In this document: positions 2,620 through 21,526 of the stretch, one piece after another | Layout: every line of letters begins with the position of its first letter | Position numbering within the stretch: position 1 is the first letter of the stretch | Source of the DNA: a virus | Lineage: Duplodnaviria > Heunggongvirae > Uroviricota > Caudoviricetes | IMG/VR virus record: IMGVR_UViG_2744054628_000009 | Location: 1-22,665 of that record | Length of the DNA stretch: 22,665 bases | Direction: 5' to 3' (one strand) | Made by a program: the position numbers and the translations under genes | The notes under the pieces: generated by a model | The model's database searches: none | What the model saw: the letters and a program-made list of their open reading frames with translations, nothing else | What the model was told of the DNA's origin: nothing

Positions 2620-2731
2620 AACTGAAGTTGCCCTGAAAATGAAATTTTTTTGCACAACCGCAGAACTTTTCCGCAGGGCATCAGTCTTAATTAGTGCCAC
2701 TGCTTTTCTTTGATGTCCCCATTTTGTGGAG

Positions 2732-2775
2732 CCCATCAACCCCGCCATTTCGGTTCAAGGTTGATGGGTTTTTTG
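2732..2775 (+). terminator. Rho-independent terminator downstream of ybjL
   Basis: 10-bp perfect inverted repeat cccatcaacc (2732-2741) / ggttgatggg (2759-2768) followed by tttttt (2769-2774). Confidence 0.6.
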
Positions 2776-2854
2776 TTGCCTGAAATTTATGCCGTTTAAA
2801 ATCATGACGTTAGGAGCACTGTTTTTTAACGATGGCGACAAAATGGCGGCAGCG

Positions 2855-3073
2855 TCAAAGAGAGAGCGCCACCTGTCCTGATTTCATTGGATGCGGCTGA
2901 ACCGGATTTGACTCTTTTGGCGTTGCAATCGAACGAACAAAAGTTTCATGGGTAACAAAAGTATGGCTGCAGTTAATGTTCTGGCACTGGTTGTAACGCT
3001 CTTTGGTCAATGAAGATACCTGAAAACTGCTGCGAGTATGGGCGGCACTTCCACACAGTGGGCAAATCATCAT
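2855..3073 (-). CDS. ogr: Late-gene transcription activator, Ogr/B family zinc finger
   Basis: MMICPLCGSAAHTRSSF...KERYNQCQNINCSHTF... carries the C-x2-C...C-x4-C Ogr zinc-finger pattern, about 72 aa from the internal ATG. The ORF-track start at 3106 is probably an upstream extension. Confidence 0.8.
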   Translation of the reverse strand: MMICPLCGSAAHTRSSFQVSSLTKERYNQCQNINCSHTFVTHETFVRSIATPKESNPVQPHPMKSGQVALSL

Positions 3074-3163
3074 TTTTCGAGTTCTCCCCATTTTTGCTAA
3101 ATTCACAATAATGATACCGCATTATTCCATTTTGAAAACTTAAAAGTTCTCCATTGCGAAGAA

Positions 3164-4264
3164 TCACTCCATTTCGAAATCATCAATCTTCACTTCAAGC
3201 TCCAAACTGGTCGTAAAACCGTTATCCGGGCTGACAGTATGCGTCAGGGTGGTAATAGTCCATTCCGCATCATCTATCGGCTGTTTAAAGCCACTGACTT
3301 TCACTGGCATTTCCGTGTAGAGATCTGCCCGACCTTCTGCCAGTTGTAGCGAGAATGACGCAACACCGCGTTGCAGGCGTTCCCACTGCATTTTCGCTGC
3401 CCGCTCGGCGTTGCCCCGGTTGGCATAGGTGCGATTAAGTACCAGCACGTTTTCATCCGTACCCACCAGGTAATCGCCCTGCTTCGCTTCCGGCTCTTTC
3501 TTCTGCTTCTTAGTCCTGCGCTTACGCTTCACGGCAGTGCTTTCTTTCTTCGCGGGTTCACGGGTATGTAACCAACTGGCAATTACGCCCGTATAGGCTC
3601 CGCGATCTGCCAGGGTAAAGCGGTGACTGTCGCCGTCCTTACGTGTGATAGTGATCACCGGCAGTGGTTTACCAGTGGCGCTTTTGCCCTGTCCCTGCCG
3701 GATGAATAACAGATTGCCATTTTTCACCGACGCGATGGCACCGTACTGGCGCGCCAGCCGCATCAGAAAACTGCCGTCACTCTCATTAGTCTGGTCTATA
3801 TGCTCCACGGGCTTATCCGACAGGTCTTTACCCAGTGCCATCTTCAGCTTGTGACGCGCGGCTATTTCCTTCACCACTTCCCCGACAGTGGTCTTGTGCC
3901 ACGACTTTTCACGGCGGGTATTCAGCGTTTCACGAAAATCAGCACTTCGCGCCCGGATAGTCAGGCGGTCCGGTGCGCCAGTGTGTTCAATCTCGTCCAC
4001 CGTGAATGCCCCTTTCGGGAAAAGCGGCTGCCCCTTCCAGCCCAGCGCCAGCGTAATGACCGCACCACGGCGCGGCAGCACGATTTTTCCGTCGGCGTCG
4101 TCCAGCTCCAGATCAAGCTGGTCCGCTTCAAAGCCCCGATTGTCCGTCAGCGTCAGACTCATCAGGCGATTATCCAGGACAGTAGTGATATCCCTGCCCT
4201 CAATACTGATGCTGAATGCGGGAGTTTTGTTGCCCTTGTTAAGCAGTTCAGAGCTGAAATTCAC
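3164..4264 (-). CDS. D: P2 gpD-like tail protein
   Basis: 366-aa ORF immediately upstream of ogr with an ATGA overlap to gpU, as in P2; sequence recalls gpD. Confidence 0.75.
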   Translation of the reverse strand: MNFSSELLNKGNKTPAFSISIEGRDITTVLDNRLMSLTLTDNRGFEADQLDLELDDADGKIVLPRRGAVITLALGWKGQPLFPKGAFTVDEIEHTGAPDRLTIRARSADFRETLNTRREKSWHKTTVGEVVKEIAARHKLKMALGKDLSDKPVEHIDQTNESDGSFLMRLARQYGAIASVKNGNLLFIRQGQGKSATGKPLPVITITRKDGDSHRFTLADRGAYTGVIASWLHTREPAKKESTAVKRKRRTKKQKKEPEAKQGDYLVGTDENVLVLNRTYANRGNAERAAKMQWERLQRGVASFSLQLAEGRADLYTEMPVKVSGFKQPIDDAEWTITTLTHTVSPDNGFTTSLELEVKIDDFEME

Positions 4265-4746
4265 GACAGCAGCCCTCCCACCGTTTTACTGATATCGCTT
4301 AAAGCAGATGTTGCCGTTTCCTGCAGATTATTCAGTTGCGCACTGAGATCACCGAACATATCGGACAGGGATTCATCCACCCGTTTGAGCGACAGGGTGA
4401 ACTCAATCCGGCGCGGCATACCATCGCGGAAAAACTCCGTTTTAGTCTGATTCAGTCCCTCAATCACATACATGCCGTAAATCGTGCCGCTGCCTTCAAT
4501 CAGGGGCCATGCTTTTCCCTGTTCTGCCATCTGCTCCAGAGCCAGCAACGACAGCCTGCCGCCCGTTATCTCCGGCATAAGAACACCAGAAAGCGTCAGC
4601 ATGTCGTTGTCCGGTCCCAGAAACTGCGTGGACGGACGTCGGTTGACCCGGCTGTTTGCCGCATGTCGCCAGCTGCGTTGATACTGCAGTTCCTGATACG
4701 GCACAGTGCGCAGCATAAACACGTACAATCCCAGCACCATCATCAT
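4261..4746 (-). CDS. U: P2 gpU-like tail protein
   Basis: 161 aa (P2 gpU is about 159 aa); position between T and D; start/stop overlaps with neighbours. Confidence 0.75.
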   Translation of the reverse strand: MMMVLGLYVFMLRTVPYQELQYQRSWRHAANSRVNRRPSTQFLGPDNDMLTLSGVLMPEITGGRLSLLALEQMAEQGKAWPLIEGSGTIYGMYVIEGLNQTKTEFFRDGMPRRIEFTLSLKRVDESLSDMFGDLSAQLNNLQETATSALSDISKTVGGLLS

Positions 4747-5634
4747 GCGTCGTATCCCCCCTGATCGCTGTAGTTACTCCTGGCTTTTGCCTTCAGTCTG
4801 CGCTCACGTTCATCAAGCTGGCGGGCCACCTCCCGCGCAATATCCTGCGCACTTTGTCCTGGCTGCGTCTGAATGATGATCTGCGTCGGTGCCTCAATCC
4901 GGTAAATGGGCGGCACAGTAGCTGCACGACTCACCATCGCTTCACCGCCTTTCGCGGGAAGCGCCAAAGGATGCAACGGTGGAAACTCTGCTGGCGCGGC
5001 AGCAACGCCCATCATTCCGGCAACAACGGCAGCCAGTGCAGCTGTATTTTTCCGGCTGGTCACATTTGCCGGGCCGTTAACAATTTCCGGCCCGTTTTCA
5101 CCGACGATGCCAAACTGCCCGCGCGGGATATACCCGCCGCTGTCATACATCCCCGCAAAGCCATATCCCCATGATGGAAAACCACCCGATGGCATCATCA
5201 CTTTACCGTCTGCATTCACCGTCGCAGGTTGCTGACGCGTCACGCTTTCCGGCAGTTTTGCCTTTGCGGCCTCTTTACTGACAATGCCGAGCTTCTCCAG
5301 CAACCAGGAAACGCCAGATTTCAGGGAGTCCAGCGGATGCGTGACCATATTCAGCCCTTCCGCCAGTGCCTCCCCGAATCGCCGCCCCATTGCCGCTGCG
5401 CTCTGCAGTTCGGCAGAGGTCGACTTAACGGGCGTCAGCAGATCAGTAAACCAGCCCCACAGCGCCTGCACTTTGTCGCCAATCCACTGGAACACGGGCT
5501 TAAGCGGTTCGAACGCTGCACTGATGGGACCTGCCGCCGCTTTGAATCCTTCCACCACGCCACCGAGAAATGCGGTGATGGGTTGCCAGTATTTCCAGAC
5601 AACCAGCGCCACGCCCGCCAGTGCAGTAACCACA
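4743..5634 (-). pseudogene. T: Tape measure protein gpT, C-terminal fragment only
   Basis: About 300 codons of Gly/Ala-rich tape-measure-like sequence ending in frame at the U start. The roughly 500 N-terminal codons expected for P2 gpT are absent. The upstream boundary is a deletion junction near 5635-5645. Confidence 0.65.
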
Positions 5635-5991
5635 AGACCTACCTTCAGCCAGTTGCGGCTTATAGCTTTCCGGGCAGTTGCCCACGGCAATCAATGCCCC
5701 GGACTCATCAAACAAGCCCACTTCACGTATCCACCAACCGCCCTCGTTTTCAGGGATCACCTGTTCGGCAATAATCTGGCTGCTGTTCTGCGGGTCGATA
5801 TAAAGCATATTCAGCGCAGCCCGGCGTTTCTCATTTACCAGTGCCGTCTGCTTTGCGTCCGGCGTTGGCAATACTCCACTGCCATCGCCCACCGCCATAT
5901 GGGTAATTTTTAGCGGCACACCGAGCGCGGCGGCGCTGGCAAGTTTCGCCGCGCCAATATCCGTCAGCAGGGTATAAAATTTTGTGCTCAT
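5635..5991 (-). pseudogene. H: Tail fiber protein gpH, N-terminal fragment (about 116 aa) fused out of frame to the gpT fragment
   Basis: MSTKFYTLLTDIGAAKLASAAALGVPLKITHMAVGDGSG...ESYKPQLAEG matches the remembered gpH N-terminus; after ...LAEG the frame reads Cys/Gly/Arg-rich nonsense to a stop at 5500. Confidence 0.7.
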
Positions 5992-6593
5992 GGATTCACT
6001 CTCATTGTGTCAATAACATGGACCGCCCCGCCTTCATGCGCGGTGCCACCGGAAATAATCGTTTCGTTGATATACGGATAGATCGTGATTTCTTCGCCAA
6101 GATAGCTGGCGGCTCCCACCCAATGCGGGCCGCTGGTCTGCAGATTGATGGACATGCCGATCATGTGGCGGCTACATGGTTTGGCATCGCTTATCAGTCG
6201 CTCAAGTTCCAGATAGGTATCTTCAGTGATGCCCTGGTCCTGCACGCCGATATCCAGGCGAAACGTGCCCGGTGTTTCTCCGGTCTGCCACCACTCAATA
6301 ATGCGGATCAGGAATCCGAACGGCTCCACCACCCGCCGCACGGCACTGGTGGTCCCTTTATGCTGATGAATATAAAAAGCATCCTTCACCACCTGGCGCT
6401 TGACGCTTTCTGTCCAGCCCTCGTCCCAGCGATCCACAGAGAACGCCCAAGCGAGATAAGGCAGGAAACTGACCGGACAGGTTGCCGGATTCCACAAGTC
6501 ACGAAGCGGCACCTGCAGATCAGAAATCCCGCTGCAAGTTTGCGCCAGTCGGCGCTCCAGTGGTGTTGAACCCGGTGGCAGCAGACTATTCAT
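5988..6593 (-). CDS. I: Baseplate protein gpI-like
   Basis: MNSLLPPGSTPLERRL...RDLWNPATCP...LPYLAWAFSVDRWDE... matches the conserved gpI N-terminal motifs; 4-nt overlap with the H start. Confidence 0.75.
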   Translation of the reverse strand: MNSLLPPGSTPLERRLAQTCSGISDLQVPLRDLWNPATCPVSFLPYLAWAFSVDRWDEGWTESVKRQVVKDAFYIHQHKGTTSAVRRVVEPFGFLIRIIEWWQTGETPGTFRLDIGVQDQGITEDTYLELERLISDAKPCSRHMIGMSINLQTSGPHWVGAASYLGEEITIYPYINETIISGGTAHEGGAVHVIDTMRVNP

Positions 6594-6846
6594 CCGTTCC
6601 TCCGTTGGTTACGCTCCACTGCGTACATGATGCCGCCTGTGTTTTGTTCAGGACCACATCCGCCACCGTGCCGTCAGTGCGCATGACACTGCGAAACTCC
6701 GACAGGTCCACATCAGGCCAGAACGGCGTATTTCTGATGATTTCCGCCTGTTCCGGTGCCTGTTCTGGCGCAACAAACTTCATGCTGCTTTCTCCTGAAA
6801 TAGAGGGCGGTGGACGGGGTTTTGATGTGGCAGTGCCTTTCGCCAC
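6586..6846 (-). pseudogene. Remnant: about 40 N-terminal codons of head completion protein gpL joined to a short 3-prime tail (probably the end of gpJ)
   Basis: The IIRNTPFWPDVDLSEFRSVMRTDGTV motif resembles the gpL N-terminus. The ORF is only 86 aa and its stop overlaps the gpI start as the J stop does in P2. All of X, lysis genes, R, S, V, W and most of J are missing between M and I. Confidence 0.4.
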
Positions 6847-6878
6847 CCCGTGCCGCCCGTGCGCGGGGGCACGTTCTG

Positions 6879-7529
6879 TCAGCGGCTGTCATTGCGCAGT
6901 CTGCGCTCCAGCTGCTGTTTGTCTTTTTTCACGCCACAGCGGGGATCAAGCTGTAACGCATGGTTGAGATGATTAAGGGCGGAAGCCGGATTGCTTTCAC
7001 TCAGGACAGCGCCAATCGCTTTATGCAGACGCGCCCGTGACTGGTCCGGCATATCCAGACCGTCTGTCAGCTCCAGCGTCTGCAACAACAGATCGGCATC
7101 AAAGCCGGTGGCGGCAAGCATTGCGCTCTGCGCGGCGTCTGCCATTTCCTCTGCCAGCACGGTCTGCACGTTGCGGTTACCCAGCGGCATCACCCAGCCA
7201 TGACGCAGGGCATGACGCCCGATCTCCAGCGCCCCGGCATAATCTCCGGCATCAATGCGCCACAGCATCACGTACATCAGCACATCATCCTGTTGAGCGC
7301 CTCCGGCAGCCAGGACACCCTCTGCCCAGGCGGCGTACTTCGGCAGCAGCTCCACCTTGATTTCCGCTTTTTTGACCGTGGACTGAACACCCTTGAGACG
7401 GCGGCGGTCTTCCGCCAGTTGCAGCAGCATCAGGTCATAGCCCGATGCGTGGCGAACACTGCCGCCCTCGCGGGCGGCCTGTTCAGCCTGAACGCGCAGG
7501 CGATGCTGCCGTGCGGGACTCAGGCTCAT
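6879..7529 (-). CDS. M: Terminase small (endonuclease) subunit gpM-like
   Basis: MSLSPARQHRLRVQAEQAAREGG...AQQDDVLMYVMLWRIDAGDYAGALEIGRHAL... matches remembered P2 gpM from residue 1; GGAG ribosome-binding site about 7 nt upstream on the minus strand. Confidence 0.75.
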   Translation of the reverse strand: MSLSPARQHRLRVQAEQAAREGGSVRHASGYDLMLLQLAEDRRRLKGVQSTVKKAEIKVELLPKYAAWAEGVLAAGGAQQDDVLMYVMLWRIDAGDYAGALEIGRHALRHGWVMPLGNRNVQTVLAEEMADAAQSAMLAATGFDADLLLQTLELTDGLDMPDQSRARLHKAIGAVLSESNPASALNHLNHALQLDPRCGVKKDKQQLERRLRNDSR

Positions 7530-9015
7530 GGATTACGCTCCGGTTTCGGCTGCGGCGGCGCTGAAATCACCAATCTGGATGTTTTCCAACCGCAATAAAG
7601 GCCCACGCCGTCAGCCGGAAAAGAATGTTTTCACCGATGAGCAGATTGAGAAGCTGGAAGAAATCTTCCATTCCTCCATGTTCAACTACCAGCGCCACTG
7701 GTGGGAAGCCGGAAAAACCAACCGCATCCGCAACCTGCTGAAGTCACGCCAGATCGGCGCGACCTTCTATTTTGCCCGTGAAGCCCTGATTGACGCCCTG
7801 CTTACCGGACGTAACCAGATTTTCCTTTCTGCCAGTAAGGCTCAGGCCCACGTCTTTAAACAATACATCATCGACTTTGCCAAAGAAGTCGAGGTGGAGC
7901 TAAAAGGCGATCCGATGGTGCTTCCTAACGGAGCCACGCTTTACTTCCTCGGCACCAATGCCCGCACGGCCCAGAGTTATCACGGCAACCTGTATCTGGA
8001 TGAATATTTCTGGATACCGAAATTCCAGGAGCTGCGCAAAGTGGCTTCCGGGATGGCTATTCACAAAAAATGGCGACAAACCTATTTTTCCACGCCATCC
8101 AGCCTGACCCACAGTGCTTATCCGTTCTGGTCCGGTGCGCTGTTCAACCGTGGACGCAACAAAGCTGACAAGGTGGACATCGACCTGTCCCACAGCAATC
8201 TGGCCCCCGGCCTGCTGTGCGCAGACGGGCAATACCGCCAGATAGTCACCGTGGAAGATGCGGTGCGCGGCGGCTGTAACCTGTTCGACCTCGACCAGCT
8301 ACGCATGGAGTACAGCCCGGACGAATACCAGAACCTGCTGATGTGCGAGTTCGTGGACGATCTCGCGTCCGTGTTCCCGCTCAGCGAACTGCAGGCGTGC
8401 ATGGTGGACAGCTGGGAAGTCTGGACCGACTTTCATGCACTGGCCCTGCGCCCGTTTGGCTGGCGCGAAGTGTGGATCGGTTATGACCCGGCAAAAGGTA
8501 CGCAGAACGGCGACAGTGCCGGATGCGTGGTGGTGGCTCCGCCAGCCGTGCCGGGTGGTAAGTTCCGCATTCTTGAGCGTCACCAGTGGCGCGGGATGGA
8601 CTTCCGCGCCCAGGCTGACGCCATCAAAAAACTCACCGAACAGTACAACGTGACCTATATCGGTATCGACTCAACCGGCGTTGGTCACGGGGTTTATGAG
8701 AACGTGAAAGCGTTCTTTCCTGCCGTCCGGGAGTTTGTCTACAACCCCAATGTTAAAAACGCCCTGGTACTCAAGGCCTACGACATTATCAGCCACCGCC
8801 GTCTGGAGTTTGACGCCGGGCACACCGACATTGCGCAGTCATTCATGGCAATCCGTCGCGCCACCACCGCCAGCGGCAACCGCCCGACCTATGAAGCCAG
8901 CCGCAGCGAAGAAGCCAGCCACGCCGATCTGGCCTGGGCAACGATGCACGCACTGTTTAACGAACCGCTGCAGGGCGAATCCGCCAATACCAGCAATATT
9001 GTGGAGATTTTTTGA
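7528..9015 (+). CDS. P: Terminase large (ATPase) subunit gpP-like, probably truncated at the 5-prime end
   Basis: Walker-A-like LKSRQIGAT; 4-nt overlap with the Q start. The M start codon abuts this ORF with no room for the divergent promoters or for O and N. The first 20-30 codons of the ORF are probably not native. True start not determined. Confidence 0.65.
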   Translation: MDYAPVSAAAALKSPIWMFSNRNKGPRRQPEKNVFTDEQIEKLEEIFHSSMFNYQRHWWEAGKTNRIRNLLKSRQIGATFYFAREALIDALLTGRNQIFLSASKAQAHVFKQYIIDFAKEVEVELKGDPMVLPNGATLYFLGTNARTAQSYHGNLYLDEYFWIPKFQELRKVASGMAIHKKWRQTYFSTPSSLTHSAYPFWSGALFNRGRNKADKVDIDLSHSNLAPGLLCADGQYRQIVTVEDAVRGGCNLFDLDQLRMEYSPDEYQNLLMCEFVDDLASVFPLSELQACMVDSWEVWTDFHALALRPFGWREVWIGYDPAKGTQNGDSAGCVVVAPPAVPGGKFRILERHQWRGMDFRAQADAIKKLTEQYNVTYIGIDSTGVGHGVYENVKAFFPAVREFVYNPNVKNALVLKAYDIISHRRLEFDAGHTDIAQSFMAIRRATTASGNRPTYEASRSEEASHADLAWATMHALFNEPLQGESANTSNIVEIF

Positions 9016-10040
9016 TGGGAAAGAGTAAGAAAAACCGCGCTGCGGCGACGAATCAGCTCAAGCATAAAAGCCAGACTTCAGCCGAAGCATTCAGCTTTGG
9101 CGATCCCGTTCCTGTTCTGGACCGCCGTGAACTGCTGGACTATGTGGAATGCGTACAGATGGACCGCTGGTATGAGCCGCCCGTCAGCTTTGACGGACTG
9201 GCACGAACCTTCCGCGCTGCCGTGCATCACAGCTCACCGATTGCAGTAAAATGCAACATTCTGACCAGTACCTACATCCCTCACCCGCTGCTCAGCCAGC
9301 AGGCTTTTTCACGTTTTGTGCAGGACTATCTGGTATTTGGTAACGCCTACCTGGAGAAACGCACGAACCGCTTCGGTGAAGTTATCGCCCTTGAGCCTGC
9401 TCTGGCAAAATACACCCGACGCGGGTTAGACCTGGATACCTACTGGTTTGTGCAATACGGTATGACAACCCAGCCGTATCAGTTCACGAAAGGCAGCATT
9501 TTTCATCTGATGGAACCGGACATTAACCAGGAGATCTACGGCCTGCCCGGCTATCTTTCTGCCATTCCGTCCGCCCTGCTCAATGAGTCCGCCACGCTGT
9601 TCCGCCGCAAGTATTACATTAACGGTAGTCATGCAGGCTTCATCATGTACATGACCGATGCTGCGCAGAACCAGGAGGACGTGAACAACCTCCGCAATGC
9701 AATGAAAAGTGCCAAAGGTCCGGGTAACTTCCGCAACCTGTTTATGTACTCGCCTAACGGCAAAAAGGACGGCCTTCAGATCATCCCTTTGTCAGAAGTT
9801 GCGGCGAAGGATGAGTTTCTAAATATCAAGAACGTGAGCCGGGATGACATGATGGCAGCACATCGCGTTCCGCCACAGATGATGGGGATAATGCCTAATA
9901 ATGTTGGGGGATTTGGGGATGTAGAAAAAGCTAGTAAGGTATTTGTGAAAAATGAATTATTACCATTACAAAAAAGAATGAAAGAATTTAATCATTGGAG
10001 CGGTGAAGAAATTATAAAATTCGAGAGATATCAAATTTAG
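9012..10040 (+). CDS. Q: Portal protein gpQ-like
   Basis: 342 aa (P2 gpQ is about 344 aa), immediately downstream of P with an ATGA overlap. Confidence 0.8.
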   Translation: MMGKSKKNRAAATNQLKHKSQTSAEAFSFGDPVPVLDRRELLDYVECVQMDRWYEPPVSFDGLARTFRAAVHHSSPIAVKCNILTSTYIPHPLLSQQAFSRFVQDYLVFGNAYLEKRTNRFGEVIALEPALAKYTRRGLDLDTYWFVQYGMTTQPYQFTKGSIFHLMEPDINQEIYGLPGYLSAIPSALLNESATLFRRKYYINGSHAGFIMYMTDAAQNQEDVNNLRNAMKSAKGPGNFRNLFMYSPNGKKDGLQIIPLSEVAAKDEFLNIKNVSRDDMMAAHRVPPQMMGIMPNNVGGFGDVEKASKVFVKNELLPLQKRMKEFNHWSGEEIIKFERYQI

Positions 10041-10041
10041 C

Positions 10042-10066
10042 AAAGTGCCTCTAAAAGAGGCGCTTT
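10042..10066. terminator. Hairpin between the convergent Q and DprA-like genes (possible bidirectional terminator)
   Basis: aaagtgcctct-aaa-agaggcgcttt: an 11-bp stem with one G-T pair, A-rich on the 5-prime side and T-rich on the 3-prime side. Confidence 0.45.
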
Positions 10067-11039
10067 AAATCAAGTCTAATGTACTCTGTTTCCCTGGCCA
10101 TTTTAGCTCTAACAAATACTCCCGAGACTCATTTATGATCATAATCACATCATCATAATCCCGTTTTGTTTTTAACGCTCTAGCCATGTTGCTCTTAACT
10201 AAATCAACTGTTCCCTCACAATTAAGATTAAGCGGATTATTAGGTAGGTGAGGTACAACCGCAAACACTGGTCTTTTCGCCTTATTTGCAAACTCAGCTT
10301 GAGTTATCGTTCCGCTATTTAACGCAGCCTCGATTAAAATTGAACCTGCAGATAATCCAACTTGTATCCGATTTCTTTGTACAAATGATTGTTTCTGGGC
10401 CGGTCGACCCATAGGATACTCAGAAATCCATGCACCACCTTTATCCAGAATCTCTTGAGCAAGTCGACTGTTTTGCTTCGGCTTAGCCTCCTCAAGACCA
10501 TGCGCCAAGACAGCAATGGTTTTTCCTTTTGCTTGTAACGTTGCCTTATGAGCATTCGCATCAGTGCCTATTGCTAACCCACTTACAACAATATACCCAG
10601 CAGACACTATTTGATTAGTGATTCGCCTCGTTATTTCTTCCCCTGCAGGGGAAGTATCACGGGATCCTACAATTGCGACACCCGGCAATTCTTTTAGTAT
10701 ACTTTTATCCCCTTTTATGTAGAGAATTGATGGTGGATTAGGAGTAAACGCTAAACTAAGAGGATAGAATTCAGACCCATATGGTATTAGCTCCACACCA
10801 TTAACATGGTGGTTCTCCAATTCAGCATTCGCTATTAGAAAATCAGTCTCAGATATTTTATCTTTTAGAAACCCGTGGCTATTAACCATCTCAGTTAAGT
10901 CGCGTATATCACGAATAACATCAAAATCAATAAGCTCAAAGAATTTCAATACACTTTGATCAGATGCTAGCTTCCCGATTTGAATAGCTAATCCAAGTGT
11001 ATTTTTTAATTCTTCTGAGTGCACTTTGCTACTCCTCAT
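10065..11039 (-). CDS. shosA: DprA/Smf-like (SLOG-fold) protein; ShosA-like
   Basis: C-terminal region VAIVGSRDTSPAGEEI...SGLAIGTDANAHKATLQAKGKTIAVLAHGLE...QRNRIQVGLSAGSILIEAALNSGTI fits the DprA Rossmann-domain pattern. Start overlaps the upstream PRTase gene by 11 nt; an AGGAG precedes an alternative GTG at 11027. Confidence 0.65.
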   Translation of the reverse strand: MRSSKVHSEELKNTLGLAIQIGKLASDQSVLKFFELIDFDVIRDIRDLTEMVNSHGFLKDKISETDFLIANAELENHHVNGVELIPYGSEFYPLSLAFTPNPPSILYIKGDKSILKELPGVAIVGSRDTSPAGEEITRRITNQIVSAGYIVVSGLAIGTDANAHKATLQAKGKTIAVLAHGLEEAKPKQNSRLAQEILDKGGAWISEYPMGRPAQKQSFVQRNRIQVGLSAGSILIEAALNSGTITQAEFANKAKRPVFAVVPHLPNNPLNLNCEGTVDLVKSNMARALKTKRDYDDVIMIINESREYLLELKWPGKQSTLDLI

Positions 11040-11604
11040 AGTTTGCAGTTTCTAGCAGAGCTAATGGCATTATAACTCCAGCTCCTGCAGACTCCAGTAA
11101 ATAAAAACACGCAGACAAACTACCGCCTGTTGTTTTAACATCATCTAGTAGTAACACATTTCGCCCCATGAGGTTACCACCCCTAACTCTGATACTAGAC
11201 ATGTGACCAGTAATTGAGCGATCTCCTCCTTCACGATGTGCGCTAGGAACAGTGCGTGTTCTTTCCAAACAGCAATCAACAATGCCCCGACGGTGAACAT
11301 TTACGATTCGCTCGGCGACCTCAATCAAAGCCGGTGAAATTCTGCCTTCAGTGTGAGATGGGACGACTGCTATCGAAAAAGGAGACTCAACAAAACGCCC
11401 ACCGCCACCTCTGATTACTAACCGCCCAACCTTATCTATAGCTAATCGAGAAAAACGGTTAATAGCCCTTTGATGATTACGATTATTTTCATCCTTAAAA
11501 TCCATCATCTGCCTTGATAGTTCATCGCTATGAGGGTTGCGCTCTCCCAAATGCCAGTAGGGGTGATACAAGCCACACGATGTAACACTTACGGGTAAAA
11601 GCAT
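11029..11604 (-). CDS. shosT: Phosphoribosyltransferase-domain protein; ShosT-like
   Basis: Type I PRTase PRPP-binding motif VLLLDDVKTTGGSL near residue 150; 191 aa; translationally coupled to the DprA-like gene. Confidence 0.65.
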   Translation of the reverse strand: MLLPVSVTSCGLYHPYWHLGERNPHSDELSRQMMDFKDENNRNHQRAINRFSRLAIDKVGRLVIRGGGGRFVESPFSIAVVPSHTEGRISPALIEVAERIVNVHRRGIVDCCLERTRTVPSAHREGGDRSITGHMSSIRVRGGNLMGRNVLLLDDVKTTGGSLSACFYLLESAGAGVIMPLALLETANYEE

Positions 11605-19059: not shown

Positions 19060-19983
19060 ATGTCAACTCAAAAATTAAAATTTAGCCATATCAAAAACGA
19101 TCTGAAAGCAATAGTTATGCAGAATCGTGGAGGGCAAAAAGTTATTGAGCGTATACTCCTAGCCTATGGCTTCAAGTCACGACAGGCATTATGTAATCAT
19201 CTAGGTATTTCCCAAAGTACTATGGCCAACAGATATGCACGTAATACCTTTCCTGCAGATTGGGTTGTTATATGTTCCATAGAAACAGGAGCATCAATTG
19301 AATGGTTAGTTCTTGGTTCAGATACTGCTCCTTCATCAAAGCAATATTCTGAAAAACATGCCGTTAATGGCCTTTGCAATGAAGTATACATTCCCACTAT
19401 AAAGTTCGATAATGAAAAACTCATGAATTTTAACCGAGGGGGTAAGGCAACAATAGAACGAATTGTCGAGGCTTACGGTTACAAAACGCGCCAAGCATTA
19501 GCTGATCACCTAGGTATTTCAAAAAGCACATTAGCCACACGATACATGCGTGACATTTTTCCTGCAGACTGGGTTTTGCAGTGTGCAATAGAAACGGGCC
19601 ATTCTATTGAATGGATTTCATTTGGTACAGGAGAAATGAAAAACGCAAAAAATAAAGATACTTTAACATTAGTGAAAAAAGTATTAATCAATGGCAAGTT
19701 AATAAATGATGGCTCATATTTATTTGACCCATGCTTTCTACCTTCCAATTTAAAAAATGCATTCGTAGTATCTACCGAAGACTCTGAATTAATATGTGAA
19801 ATAGGTTTTAAAGATGTACATGATGGTAAGTGGCTAGTAAATATTGATGGAGAGAATTCATTTAGAATGATAACTCGACTACCTAAAGGACGAGTTTATA
19901 TTTCATCCCAAAATCACTCTTTTGAATGTTCGCTTACAGACATTGAGTTTATTGCAAAAGTTATTATAAGTTGTTTACATTAA
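19060..19983 (+). CDS. CI-repressor paralog with two tandem N-terminal HTH domains and a CI-like C-terminal domain
   Basis: Two HTH copies (about aa 22-85 and 127-190) each resemble the cI N-terminus; the second is roughly 85% identical by eye. The C-terminal part aligns with the cI C-terminus (LPSNLKN..., DGKWL.NID..., ITRLP.GR). AT-rich. Confidence 0.65.
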   Translation: MSTQKLKFSHIKNDLKAIVMQNRGGQKVIERILLAYGFKSRQALCNHLGISQSTMANRYARNTFPADWVVICSIETGASIEWLVLGSDTAPSSKQYSEKHAVNGLCNEVYIPTIKFDNEKLMNFNRGGKATIERIVEAYGYKTRQALADHLGISKSTLATRYMRDIFPADWVLQCAIETGHSIEWISFGTGEMKNAKNKDTLTLVKKVLINGKLINDGSYLFDPCFLPSNLKNAFVVSTEDSELICEIGFKDVHDGKWLVNIDGENSFRMITRLPKGRVYISSQNHSFECSLTDIEFIAKVIISCLH

Positions 19984-20008
19984 GTAAATTTTTCATGGAG
20001 ACTTCATA

Positions 20009-21526
20009 GTGAAATGTGGTGATTGTAATTGGAACTGGGATGAAGAAACTACCTTTATATTAGACGACGAAGAGGAAATTCTTTCCAAAGACAAACTTAA
20101 TCGGAGACACTATGCAGAATATCTATATTTTTATCTTAAGGAAAAGGGGAAAAAGAACAACACGGTAATCAACCTTAATGCAGAATGGGGAGCTGGTAAA
20201 AGTTTTTTCATAAAGAGATTTTATAACTCAATAAAAGATGCACACCCATGCGTTTACATTGATGCCTGGAAGCAAGACTTTTCTGATGATGCATTTTTAA
20301 CCCTTTTTTCTTCTTTGTCACAACAATTGCAAACATATGCAGGAAAACTTGATGCTCGATTGATACAAAGCGGCCATGCTATCGGACGCTTTACAAAAGG
20401 TGTTCTACCTGAAATCATATCTGGCCTAATCAAGACTTATGCAGGAGTAGATAACGTAGGTGATATAGCCAAAGAAGCCTCATTAATAATGCTGAAGGAA
20501 CACCAGGAAAAACTGAAGAGCATTAAGGTATTAAAAAAAGAACTAACGTTATGGTCTAGGTTGGCATATGAAAATAGTTTTTCATATCCTATATTTATCT
20601 TTATAGATGAATTAGACAGATGCAGGCCAGATTATGCAATTTCTCTTTTAGAGATTGTTAAACATATATTCGATATTAAAAATTTTGTCTTTATTATTGC
20701 TACTGACACAGATCAATTACAACATTCAATCAAGAATGTTTACGGTAATGATTTTTCCGCAAATGACTATTTAGGCCGTTTTTTTCATAGAAGATTTACT
20801 TTAAAACAACCTGAACTTAAAGATTTAATTAATGGTGTTGTTGGTGATTATATTGGTACCGATTTTGAAAATATCACATCAAAAACATACCCACTAACAG
20901 CAACATTAGAAGACTTTTCAATAAATATTTCCAACGTATTTGAAGCATTTGGGTTAAATCTAAGAGACTCAATCCGAAATACTGAAAGGTTAATAGACAT
21001 TCTTAAATCTGATTTAGTCAAAAAGAAAGTAGATTATATTTTTATAATTTCGCTAATGATTATATATGATAAGGATCGTCAAATTATAGATGGACTAATT
21101 GGTCGAAGAAATGCAGCACAACGTTTCACTGATTCGATAAAGCAAAGCTCCAATTTAAAAGGTGTTTCTCAAGCCATCCTTGAATTAAATCTTGATACAA
21201 ATCAGCAAAGAATAGGTGTCAATTATATCTATAGAACGGCGAGCAGTAGATTATTCATCTCACAGATCGAGCCCAAAATAAATTTAACATTAATAAATTA
21301 CTTAGATGTTGCATTGTATTTTATTAATAATATAAACATGCTTAAATCAAGTATAAAAAACAATGGGCAAAATTCACTAATGATTATATCTCAACAAGGC
21401 CCTATTGATGGTGATACAGCTATAAAGTATTTGCAAGGAGCCCTTATAGAGAATGGTCTGAATACATCTTTTTATGCCTTACATAATTACATTGAATTAA
21501 TTGAACTGGCCACATCATTTGATTAA
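20009..21526 (+). CDS. KAP-family P-loop NTPase (PifA-like)
   Basis: Walker A GAGKSFF (about aa 60) and Walker B IFIFIDELDRCRP (about aa 196), in the form typical of KAP NTPases; GTG start with GGAG 8 nt upstream; strongly AT-rich, 505 aa. Confidence 0.65.
   Translation: MKCGDCNWNWDEETTFILDDEEEILSKDKLNRRHYAEYLYFYLKEKGKKNNTVINLNAEWGAGKSFFIKRFYNSIKDAHPCVYIDAWKQDFSDDAFLTLFSSLSQQLQTYAGKLDARLIQSGHAIGRFTKGVLPEIISGLIKTYAGVDNVGDIAKEASLIMLKEHQEKLKSIKVLKKELTLWSRLAYENSFSYPIFIFIDELDRCRPDYAISLLEIVKHIFDIKNFVFIIATDTDQLQHSIKNVYGNDFSANDYLGRFFHRRFTLKQPELKDLINGVVGDYIGTDFENITSKTYPLTATLEDFSINISNVFEAFGLNLRDSIRNTERLIDILKSDLVKKKVDYIFIISLMIIYDKDRQIIDGLIGRRNAAQRFTDSIKQSSNLKGVSQAILELNLDTNQQRIGVNYIYRTASSRLFISQIEPKINLTLINYLDVALYFINNINMLKSSIKNNGQNSLMIISQQGPIDGDTAIKYLQGALIENGLNTSFYALHNYIELIELATSFD

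Follow-up and report, generated by a model that had tools for sequence, protein, structure and literature searches.

A probable deletion scar joining gpH and gpT out of frame in a decayed P2/186-like prophage of Escherichia coli

The DNA analyzed here, referred to as the window, is a stretch of 22 665 nt (positions 1 to 22 665 of IMG/VR record IMGVR_UViG_2744054628_000009) that holds a P2/186-like prophage integrated between ybjL and rcdA in E. coli. The flanking gene at 934–2619 encodes a protein 100% identical to E. coli YbjL, which, like the ybjL–rcdA site, identifies E. coli and not Klebsiella as the host. Phage homology begins at 2764, where the ogr-side end of the prophage is marked by a 14-bp repeat (2764..2777), the reverse complement of AACAAAAAACCCAT; the same repeat is present at the int end in those carriers of the element that include both ends. 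Intact prophages with an identical D protein occupy the ybjL site in other strains, and these have a T protein of 1025 aa and an invertase. The closest deposited phage genomes are those of Klebsiella phages, at 96–97% identity, even though the host in this case is E. coli. The att-side flank of 4LV2017 aligns to the ybjL-side flank of the window (2664–2763), which suggests that 4LV2017 integrates at an equivalent site. Judged by such sequence comparisons, the phage group to which the prophage belongs appears to cross the E. coli and Klebsiella genera. We found no literature that joins a P2-like prophage with ybjL.

The late genes of the window follow the P2/186-like order (Q P, then O N M L ... 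V W J I H G ... FI FII E T U D ogr). In dot-plot style alignments, the element is collinear with three complete P2/186-like relatives, except for three internal deletions, here designated J1, J2 and J3. Two of the relatives are the Klebsiella phages KP12 and 4LV2017 (Elveevirus), and the third is the intact prophage of E. coli strain QML220614 (locus L089), which is likewise integrated at ybjL. The retained segments keep their order and orientation relative to all three, at 94–99.7% nucleotide identity. These comparisons with complete P2-like genomes bear out the three deletions proposed in a preliminary description made from the letters of the window. Several hallmark families of P2 score above the curated Pfam cut-offs (the replication initiator GPA, GpU, GPD, Tail_P2_I and the P2-type small terminase), and an Ogr/Delta protein is recognized by annotation. 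Starting from the ybjL side, the complement strand carries an intact gene for the late-gene activator Ogr (2855..3073; annotated Ogr/Delta zinc finger), followed by intact gpD (3164..4264; PF05954), whose protein is the one shared with the intact same-site prophages, and intact gpU (4261..4746; PF06995, E = 1.9e-44). Beyond the fused remnants of T and H lie intact gpI (5988..6593, complement strand; PF09684, E = 7e-55) and intact gpM, the small terminase (6879..7529, complement strand; PF05944), and then, on the given strand, an N-terminally truncated large terminase gene, P', together with the portal gene Q (7579..10040; PF03237, PF17289 and PF04860). In total, Q, M, I, U and D survive at full length among the virion genes, and ogr is also kept; the earlier statement that almost none of the virion genes remain is therefore slightly overstated, although most of them are indeed gone. 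The late genes J, L, P, H and T are truncated, and N, O, X, R, S, V, W, FI, FII, E/E', G and the lysis cassette are absent. From its gene content, the element is a defective remnant, predicted to be unable to make heads or tails, and not a functional member of the Peduoviridae. A search with a P2 cos sequence gave no match in the window or in any locus examined.

In comparison with the morphogenesis genes, the remainder of the prophage is well preserved, in keeping with the earlier claim that regulation, replication, integration and cargo genes are retained. The early region is intact and of 186 type, like that of the intact relatives, with CI, CII/CP76, Fil, a Dam-like methylase, an 804-aa gpA and a DinI-like Tum, and int is intact as well. 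Two cargo modules were identified. The first is a ShosTA-type toxin–antitoxin pair (10065–11604, complement strand) assigned by PADLOC (ShosA, DprA-like, E = 2.8e-70; ShosT, E = 3.6e-14), located between the portal gene and the tum/A region, and kept in some deletion variants of the element and lost in others. The last ~100 nt of Q (9932–10040) are AT-rich and no longer match KP12, which places the boundary of the cargo module inside the 3' end of Q; the gene after Q begins 25 nt past the Q stop codon, beyond a small hairpin. The second module, on the given strand between the repressor and int (19060–21526; domain matches and PADLOC), pairs a CI-like protein of 307 aa with a 505-aa KAP-family NTPase (20009–21526), a candidate defence gene that matches PADLOC PDC-S20 with E = 7.7e-78. 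The CI-like protein is unusual in combining two Phage_CI_repr HTH domains with a CI C-terminal domain, and its gene adjoins that of an ordinary 191-aa CI. This pair is present in every carrier whose contig extends that far. P2-like phages reportedly carry defence hotspots (Rousset et al. 2022). Like the phages with such hotspots, the remnant keeps cargo in two places, with ShosTA between Q and tum/A and the KAP-NTPase candidate between the repressor and int. Unlike in those phages, the interval from the fibre-assembly genes to FI, equivalent to the Z/fun hotspot of P2, lies within the deletion between H and T.

Junction J1 of this deletion is located at 5641..5642. In three-way nucleotide alignments with the complete relatives named above, T-derived DNA extends up to 5641 and H-derived DNA begins at 5642. 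The parental sequences read GACCTA/TCGG in T and GCTG/CCTTCAG in H (slashes mark the breakpoints), and the window reads GACCTA/CCTTCAG, a blunt join. On the H side, gpH' (5642..5991, complement strand) consists of gpH codons 1–116 plus 2 nt, 350 nt in all as delimited by the nucleotide alignment, so that the length of about 116 codons given in the preliminary description is exact. Its ATG at 5991 overlaps the gpI stop codon. Residues 1–117 of the stub are 99.1% identical to gpH of QML220614, a protein of 513 residues (E = 3e-79), and the match to Pfam PF12571, which models the tail-collar fibre N-terminus over 150 positions, spans positions 1–118 only. On the T side, gpT' (4743..5641, complement strand) is 899 nt long and comprises 2 nt, the last 298 codons and the stop codon of the 1025-codon tape-measure gene. 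The open reading frame that contains it (4743..5690, complement strand) is 97.3% identical to gpT residues 727–1025 of 1025 and ends in an ATGA overlap with gpU, which agrees with the earlier reading of a tape-measure C-terminus that continues down to U.

The two frames do not meet. Past the hybrid codon 117, codons in the H frame are read from 5640 and those in the T frame from 5639, one base out of register, just as an out-of-frame join had been described. The fused open reading frame of 163 aa (5500..5991, complement strand), a pseudogene product according to PGAP on NZ_OZ547226.1, therefore continues past the H sequence into an out-of-frame tail (5500..5641, complement strand), where three-frame translation gives the last base of codon 117, 46 nonsense codons and a stop. 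Neither Pfam nor protein comparison returned a family match for these 46 residues. The T remnant is without its native start, and gene callers use an internal GTG at 5555 to predict a protein of 270 aa. Relative to QML220614, the deletion removed 7716 bp (~7.7 kb), an interval that contains H codons 118–513, two fibre-assembly genes in opposite orientations, the alternative tip of the fibre, the gene for a serine DNA invertase, FI, FII, E, E' and T codons 1–726 (71% of T). Alignment thus substantiates the reported absence of G, FI, FII, E and the 5' two-thirds of T. All genes named in that list are gone, but it omits E' and the serine invertase with its alternative fibre-tip and chaperone segment, whose loss we judged from every close intact relative at the ybjL site. 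The missing parts of H (residues 1–117 of 513 are present) and of T (727–1025 of 1025) are not encoded elsewhere at the locus, and the reading frame is broken at J1. Because the join is out of frame and the T remnant is without a native start, we regard both gpH' and gpT' as pseudogene fragments made by deletion. On its own, the J1 deletion is predicted to abolish tail assembly. Immediately beside J1, the intact same-site prophages are 99.1–99.7% identical to the window, so the deletion is recent relative to the diversity of the phage family.

The other two deletions were also placed by alignment to complete relatives. J2 (6661..6665) connects the 3' end of J to the 5' part of L within 2 bp of perfect microhomology, and its loss of ~5.6 kb takes in most of J, W, V, S, R, the lysis cassette, X and most of L. 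J3 (7586..7588) connects the 3' end of N to P at about codon 113 within a 3-bp microhomology, CCA; N, O, the divergent P/O promoter (control) region and the first ~112 codons of P are lost (~2.3 kb). Relative to the intact E. coli prophages, the remnant shares the integration site but is without ~7.7 kb, ~5.6 kb and ~2.3 kb, and the lysis genes are gone too. Loss of the promoter regions may have silenced what is left. In an intact relative, a TGT-N12-ACA dyad, presumably the Ogr-type late-promoter element of P2, occurs in each of three late intergenic regions (24737, 30837 and 37546 of locus L089), and all three regions fall within the deletions of the window. No such dyad is present in window 2764–10100; as only about two would be expected there by chance, this absence is weak evidence. 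Since the dyad-bearing regions are deleted, the late genes that are left (Q, P', M, L', I, H', T', U and D) are probably promoterless and silent, although the remnant may still be transcribed by read-through, and the intact ogr appears to have no remaining target.

A possible source of such a junction is misassembly, with H and T intact in the real genome, and the preliminary description had pointed to this danger. We found the identical 60-nt junction in seven loci (L002–L006, L090 and L093) that were independently assembled from separate short-read runs and NCBI assemblies, and also in a complete chromosome. The complete genome is that of AHB21, a blood isolate from the UK (NZ_OZ547226.1; assembly GCF_988243415.1) and the only one with the junction among 5426 complete E. 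coli genomes; PGAP annotates its H and T pieces both as pseudogenes ('incomplete; partial in the middle of a contig'). Because independent assemblies carry the identical junction, misassembly is excluded for practical purposes, and the chance that an artefact lies behind it is close to nil. The remnant with all three deletions has a further carrier in a metagenome scaffold, which also speaks against an artefact of a single assembly. An index of public assemblies lists the exact 163-aa open reading frame in 54 blocks, and 24 contigs were read. In a scan of contigs with one genome per species, the exact junction 40-mer gave no match. Loci L002–L006 are all at the ybjL site and, wherever they share DNA with the window, match it at 99.95% identity or more.

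In this near-identical background, the carriers differ in what else they have lost, with seven different combinations of further deletions (described on 4LV2017 coordinates). The least decayed carrier, L090, has only an L-to-S deletion besides the H–T junction, and L004 has the L-to-S deletion plus a 401-bp deletion in M. A P-to-V deletion is found in the form represented by L003 (13 of the 24 contigs) and, together with two more deletions, in L005. The window and L006, which are equal over 13 228 nt, share the P-to-N and L-to-J deletions. Finally, L002 has an A-to-I deletion, and AHB21 and L093 an A-to-J' deletion. A 478-aa P' protein that spans J3 is found on nine contigs, one of them the metagenome scaffold; the two shown contigs that reach far enough (L100 and L101) also have J1 and J2. 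The segment from T' through U and D to ogr is present in all carriers. Since the carriers otherwise bear seven different sets of deletions, the H–T junction is the sole lesion visible in every one of them, which points to it as the first. The L-to-S deletion could match it in age, because each of the larger deletions would have erased L-to-S.

Very probably, then, the junction is what remains of one illegitimate (non-homologous) deletion that took place once, within a P2/186-like prophage at the ybjL–rcdA site in an ancestor of a clonal lineage. The DNA would have broken in gpH codon 117 and in gpT codon 727, and the ends would have been joined without microhomology, at the cost of ~7.7 kb with the receptor-binding part of the fibre, the chaperones, the invertase switch, the sheath, the tube, E/E' and 71% of T. 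After this one event in the ancestor of the clonal E. coli lineage, sublineages would have shed other pieces, with two more deletions in that of the window, and the end state would be one in which the late genes are silent and the early, replication, integration and defence-cargo genes remain. A one-step origin is what we infer, but it looks the same as a series of successive overlapping deletions, and the two cannot be told apart. We consider the junction to be a case of ordinary prophage decay and the element an object of a known kind.

Deletion by microhomology or replication slippage was tried as an explanation of J1 and rejected, as perfect microhomology is 0 bp against two intact references (2 bp at J2 and 3 bp at J3). 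Another candidate is the serine DNA invertase, which might have recombined a crossover site in H with a quasi-site in T, since all close intact relatives have the invertase gene and its invertible segment within the deleted interval. However, of the inverted crossover repeats, one falls at about H codon 345 and the other downstream of the fibre genes (3436–3462 and 5312–5338 in KP12, the latter at H codon ~345), and the H breakpoint is in codon 117, so the invertase is not implicated. By eye, there is no convincing likeness between the junction sequences and the crossover sites, and the product is without the single shared central dinucleotide that such recombination should leave. We therefore consider it highly improbable that the invertase made the deletion, and retain illegitimate joining at J1.

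Two other junctions between H and T were found in related remnants. Across its junction, the window reads GAAGG/TAGGTCTT. A gut metagenome contig (L110) reads GAAGG/TAGGTGCT, with the same H base as the window and 21 nt more of T, and a third variant (L109), whose cargo and secondary deletions differ from those of the window, reads GGGCG/TATCTGG. The 350 nt of H' beside the junction are only ~94.6–94.9% identical among the three, and these flank identities do not support common descent. The T sites are also used by fusions of other kinds. A cII::T fusion (L096) uses the T site of L110. E. coli strain 13C1079T (NZ_CP019267.1; 10681–12495 of locus L108) encodes a 604-aa triple chimera, annotated 'tail fiber protein', in which ~400 aa of gpH with internal repeats, gpT codons 566–727 and the 36 C-terminal residues of gpD are fused in frame. 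The junction between its T and D parts falls in a 7-nt microhomology, CCGATAG, that is the T site of the window, with the opposite side retained.

A protein collection was searched with the T remnant and the H stub; the matches returned were no longer than ~1.75 times the query (at most 521, 409 and 205 aa), and such searches see mostly in-frame fusions. In E. coli, chimeric open reading frames in which some other N-terminus is fused to the T C-terminus have cII, L, V, W, J, FI, the invertase gene, a fibre-assembly gene, A and H as partners. Using the T gene of locus L089 (19402–22479) as reference, 14 distinct junctions start at T codons 600–709, about 17 at 710–720, one (plus the window) at 727, four at 728–819, eight at 820–864 and seven at 882–888. 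When the length filter is roughly corrected for, the peaks at 710–720 and 882–888 are ~5–10 times denser than their surroundings. Partner positions recur as well (cII 85/86, 97/97 and 104; FI 112/116; J 109/110; V 74–79; A 157/162). Among the short H' reading frames, six of the eight that end in the range 117–190 do so at 117–122, and four events lie at H 75–76. One of the fusions is a 426-aa in-frame product of FI(1–116) and T(716–1025), called 'tolA' in some sources and encoded at 10001–11281 in L104–L107 (e.g. GCA_004283795.1); it is indexed in 44 blocks and belongs to another decayed remnant at the ybjL site, one with deletions that truncate the scaffold and invertase genes and with a reverse-transcriptase cargo gene.

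That nearly the same junction is seen in two diverged backgrounds, and that endpoints cluster, suggests that the breakpoints are not random, and 'simple random illegitimate recombination' may be an incomplete account of the H–T junction. Breakpoints might be directed by sequence or structure (fragile sites, or a nuclease or topoisomerase followed by rejoining), which would make the junction of the window one of several recurrences. The three H–T variants in diverged backgrounds, the reuse of their T sites by the cII::T and T::D events, and the peaks in T and H all favour this, and we rate it a serious possibility that nevertheless falls somewhat short of an even chance. The T hot-spot region contains degenerate repeats with 33- and 66-nt spacing and two TAGGT breakpoint motifs 21 nt apart, and microhomology across the fusion junctions ranges from 0 to 6 nt. 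No feature that would direct breakage emerged from these sites, however. None of the 3- to 5-mers shared at 53 breakpoints survives correction for multiple testing; the T hot spot has no hairpin, and its single-stranded DNA folding is not notable (z = +0.9); no promoter-like or terminator-like sites were found there; and a gyrase cleavage consensus has no top match at this place. The event lists moreover come from length-limited protein searches and consist mostly of in-frame fusions, some neighbouring junctions may have arisen from each other by secondary slippage, and the three H–T variants could go back to a single old junction, with gene conversion from other P2-like phages having since replaced its flanks. 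The wider proposition, that decay in this family is non-random, with hot spots at T 710–727 and 882–888, at H 75–76 and 117–122 and at positions in cII, FI, J, V, A and L, and that the H–T junction of the window is one of at least three independent recurrences, is more tentative still, and we would rather doubt than assert it.

The same fusions raise the question of selection for a product. A functional chimera or domesticated module, either an H-collar stub or a membrane-anchored C-terminal fragment of T that acts perhaps in superinfection exclusion, could explain why T', U, D and ogr are kept in all carriers and in several independently decayed remnants, why many remnants have in-frame fusions of some N-terminus to the T C-terminus that begin just before a hydrophobic helix, and why the three H–T variants share a reading phase. 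In the window, however, the join is out of frame and its 46-residue tail is without matches, T' has no native start and the Ogr-type dyads are gone. The abundance of in-frame fusions is partly a matter of ascertainment, as protein searches see no others. In 13C1079T, the same T site was used in a deletion that removed the T C-terminus, U and most of D; that this strain keeps the opposite side of the site speaks against the clustering being due to selection for the T C-terminus. We therefore consider a selected module very unlikely, if a little less so than an origin by the invertase, and continue to regard the H–T junction as a scar of decay.

Previous work has described cryptic or 'grounded' prophages in E. 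coli that are immobilized and progressively lose structural and lysis genes, keeping immunity and accessory genes (PMC6379469). In contrast to these, the prophage of the window has int and at least one att repeat intact; it was disabled via loss of morphogenesis genes and not through loss of excision, and its variants capture a stepwise series in one near-clonal lineage. The P2-like tailocin element specific to ST131, with a pyocin R2-like tail structure, an endolysin and a holin (PMC9205054), is likewise an E. coli P2-like element discussed as possibly kept for the benefit of the host, yet the remnant represents the opposite outcome, with sheath, tube, fibre tip and lysis genes lost.

Taken alone, the H–T junction carries little weight; it shows how one P2/186-like prophage of E. 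coli was disabled. The remnant is real and inherited, and it has kept its immunity, replication, integration and defence-cargo genes. Of broader use is the natural series to which it belongs, where seven deletion states in an almost SNP-free background resolve, for one case, in what order and how fast a prophage decays, with the tail genes lost first, or jointly first with the lysis cassette. The sole surprising element is the recurrence of breakpoints in diverged remnants, which, if confirmed at the DNA level, would indicate preferred breakage sites. Should decay at such hot spots hold true, it would point to specific breakage and rejoining on P2-like prophage DNA, for example at nuclease- or topoisomerase-sensitive sites, possibly during abortive induction.
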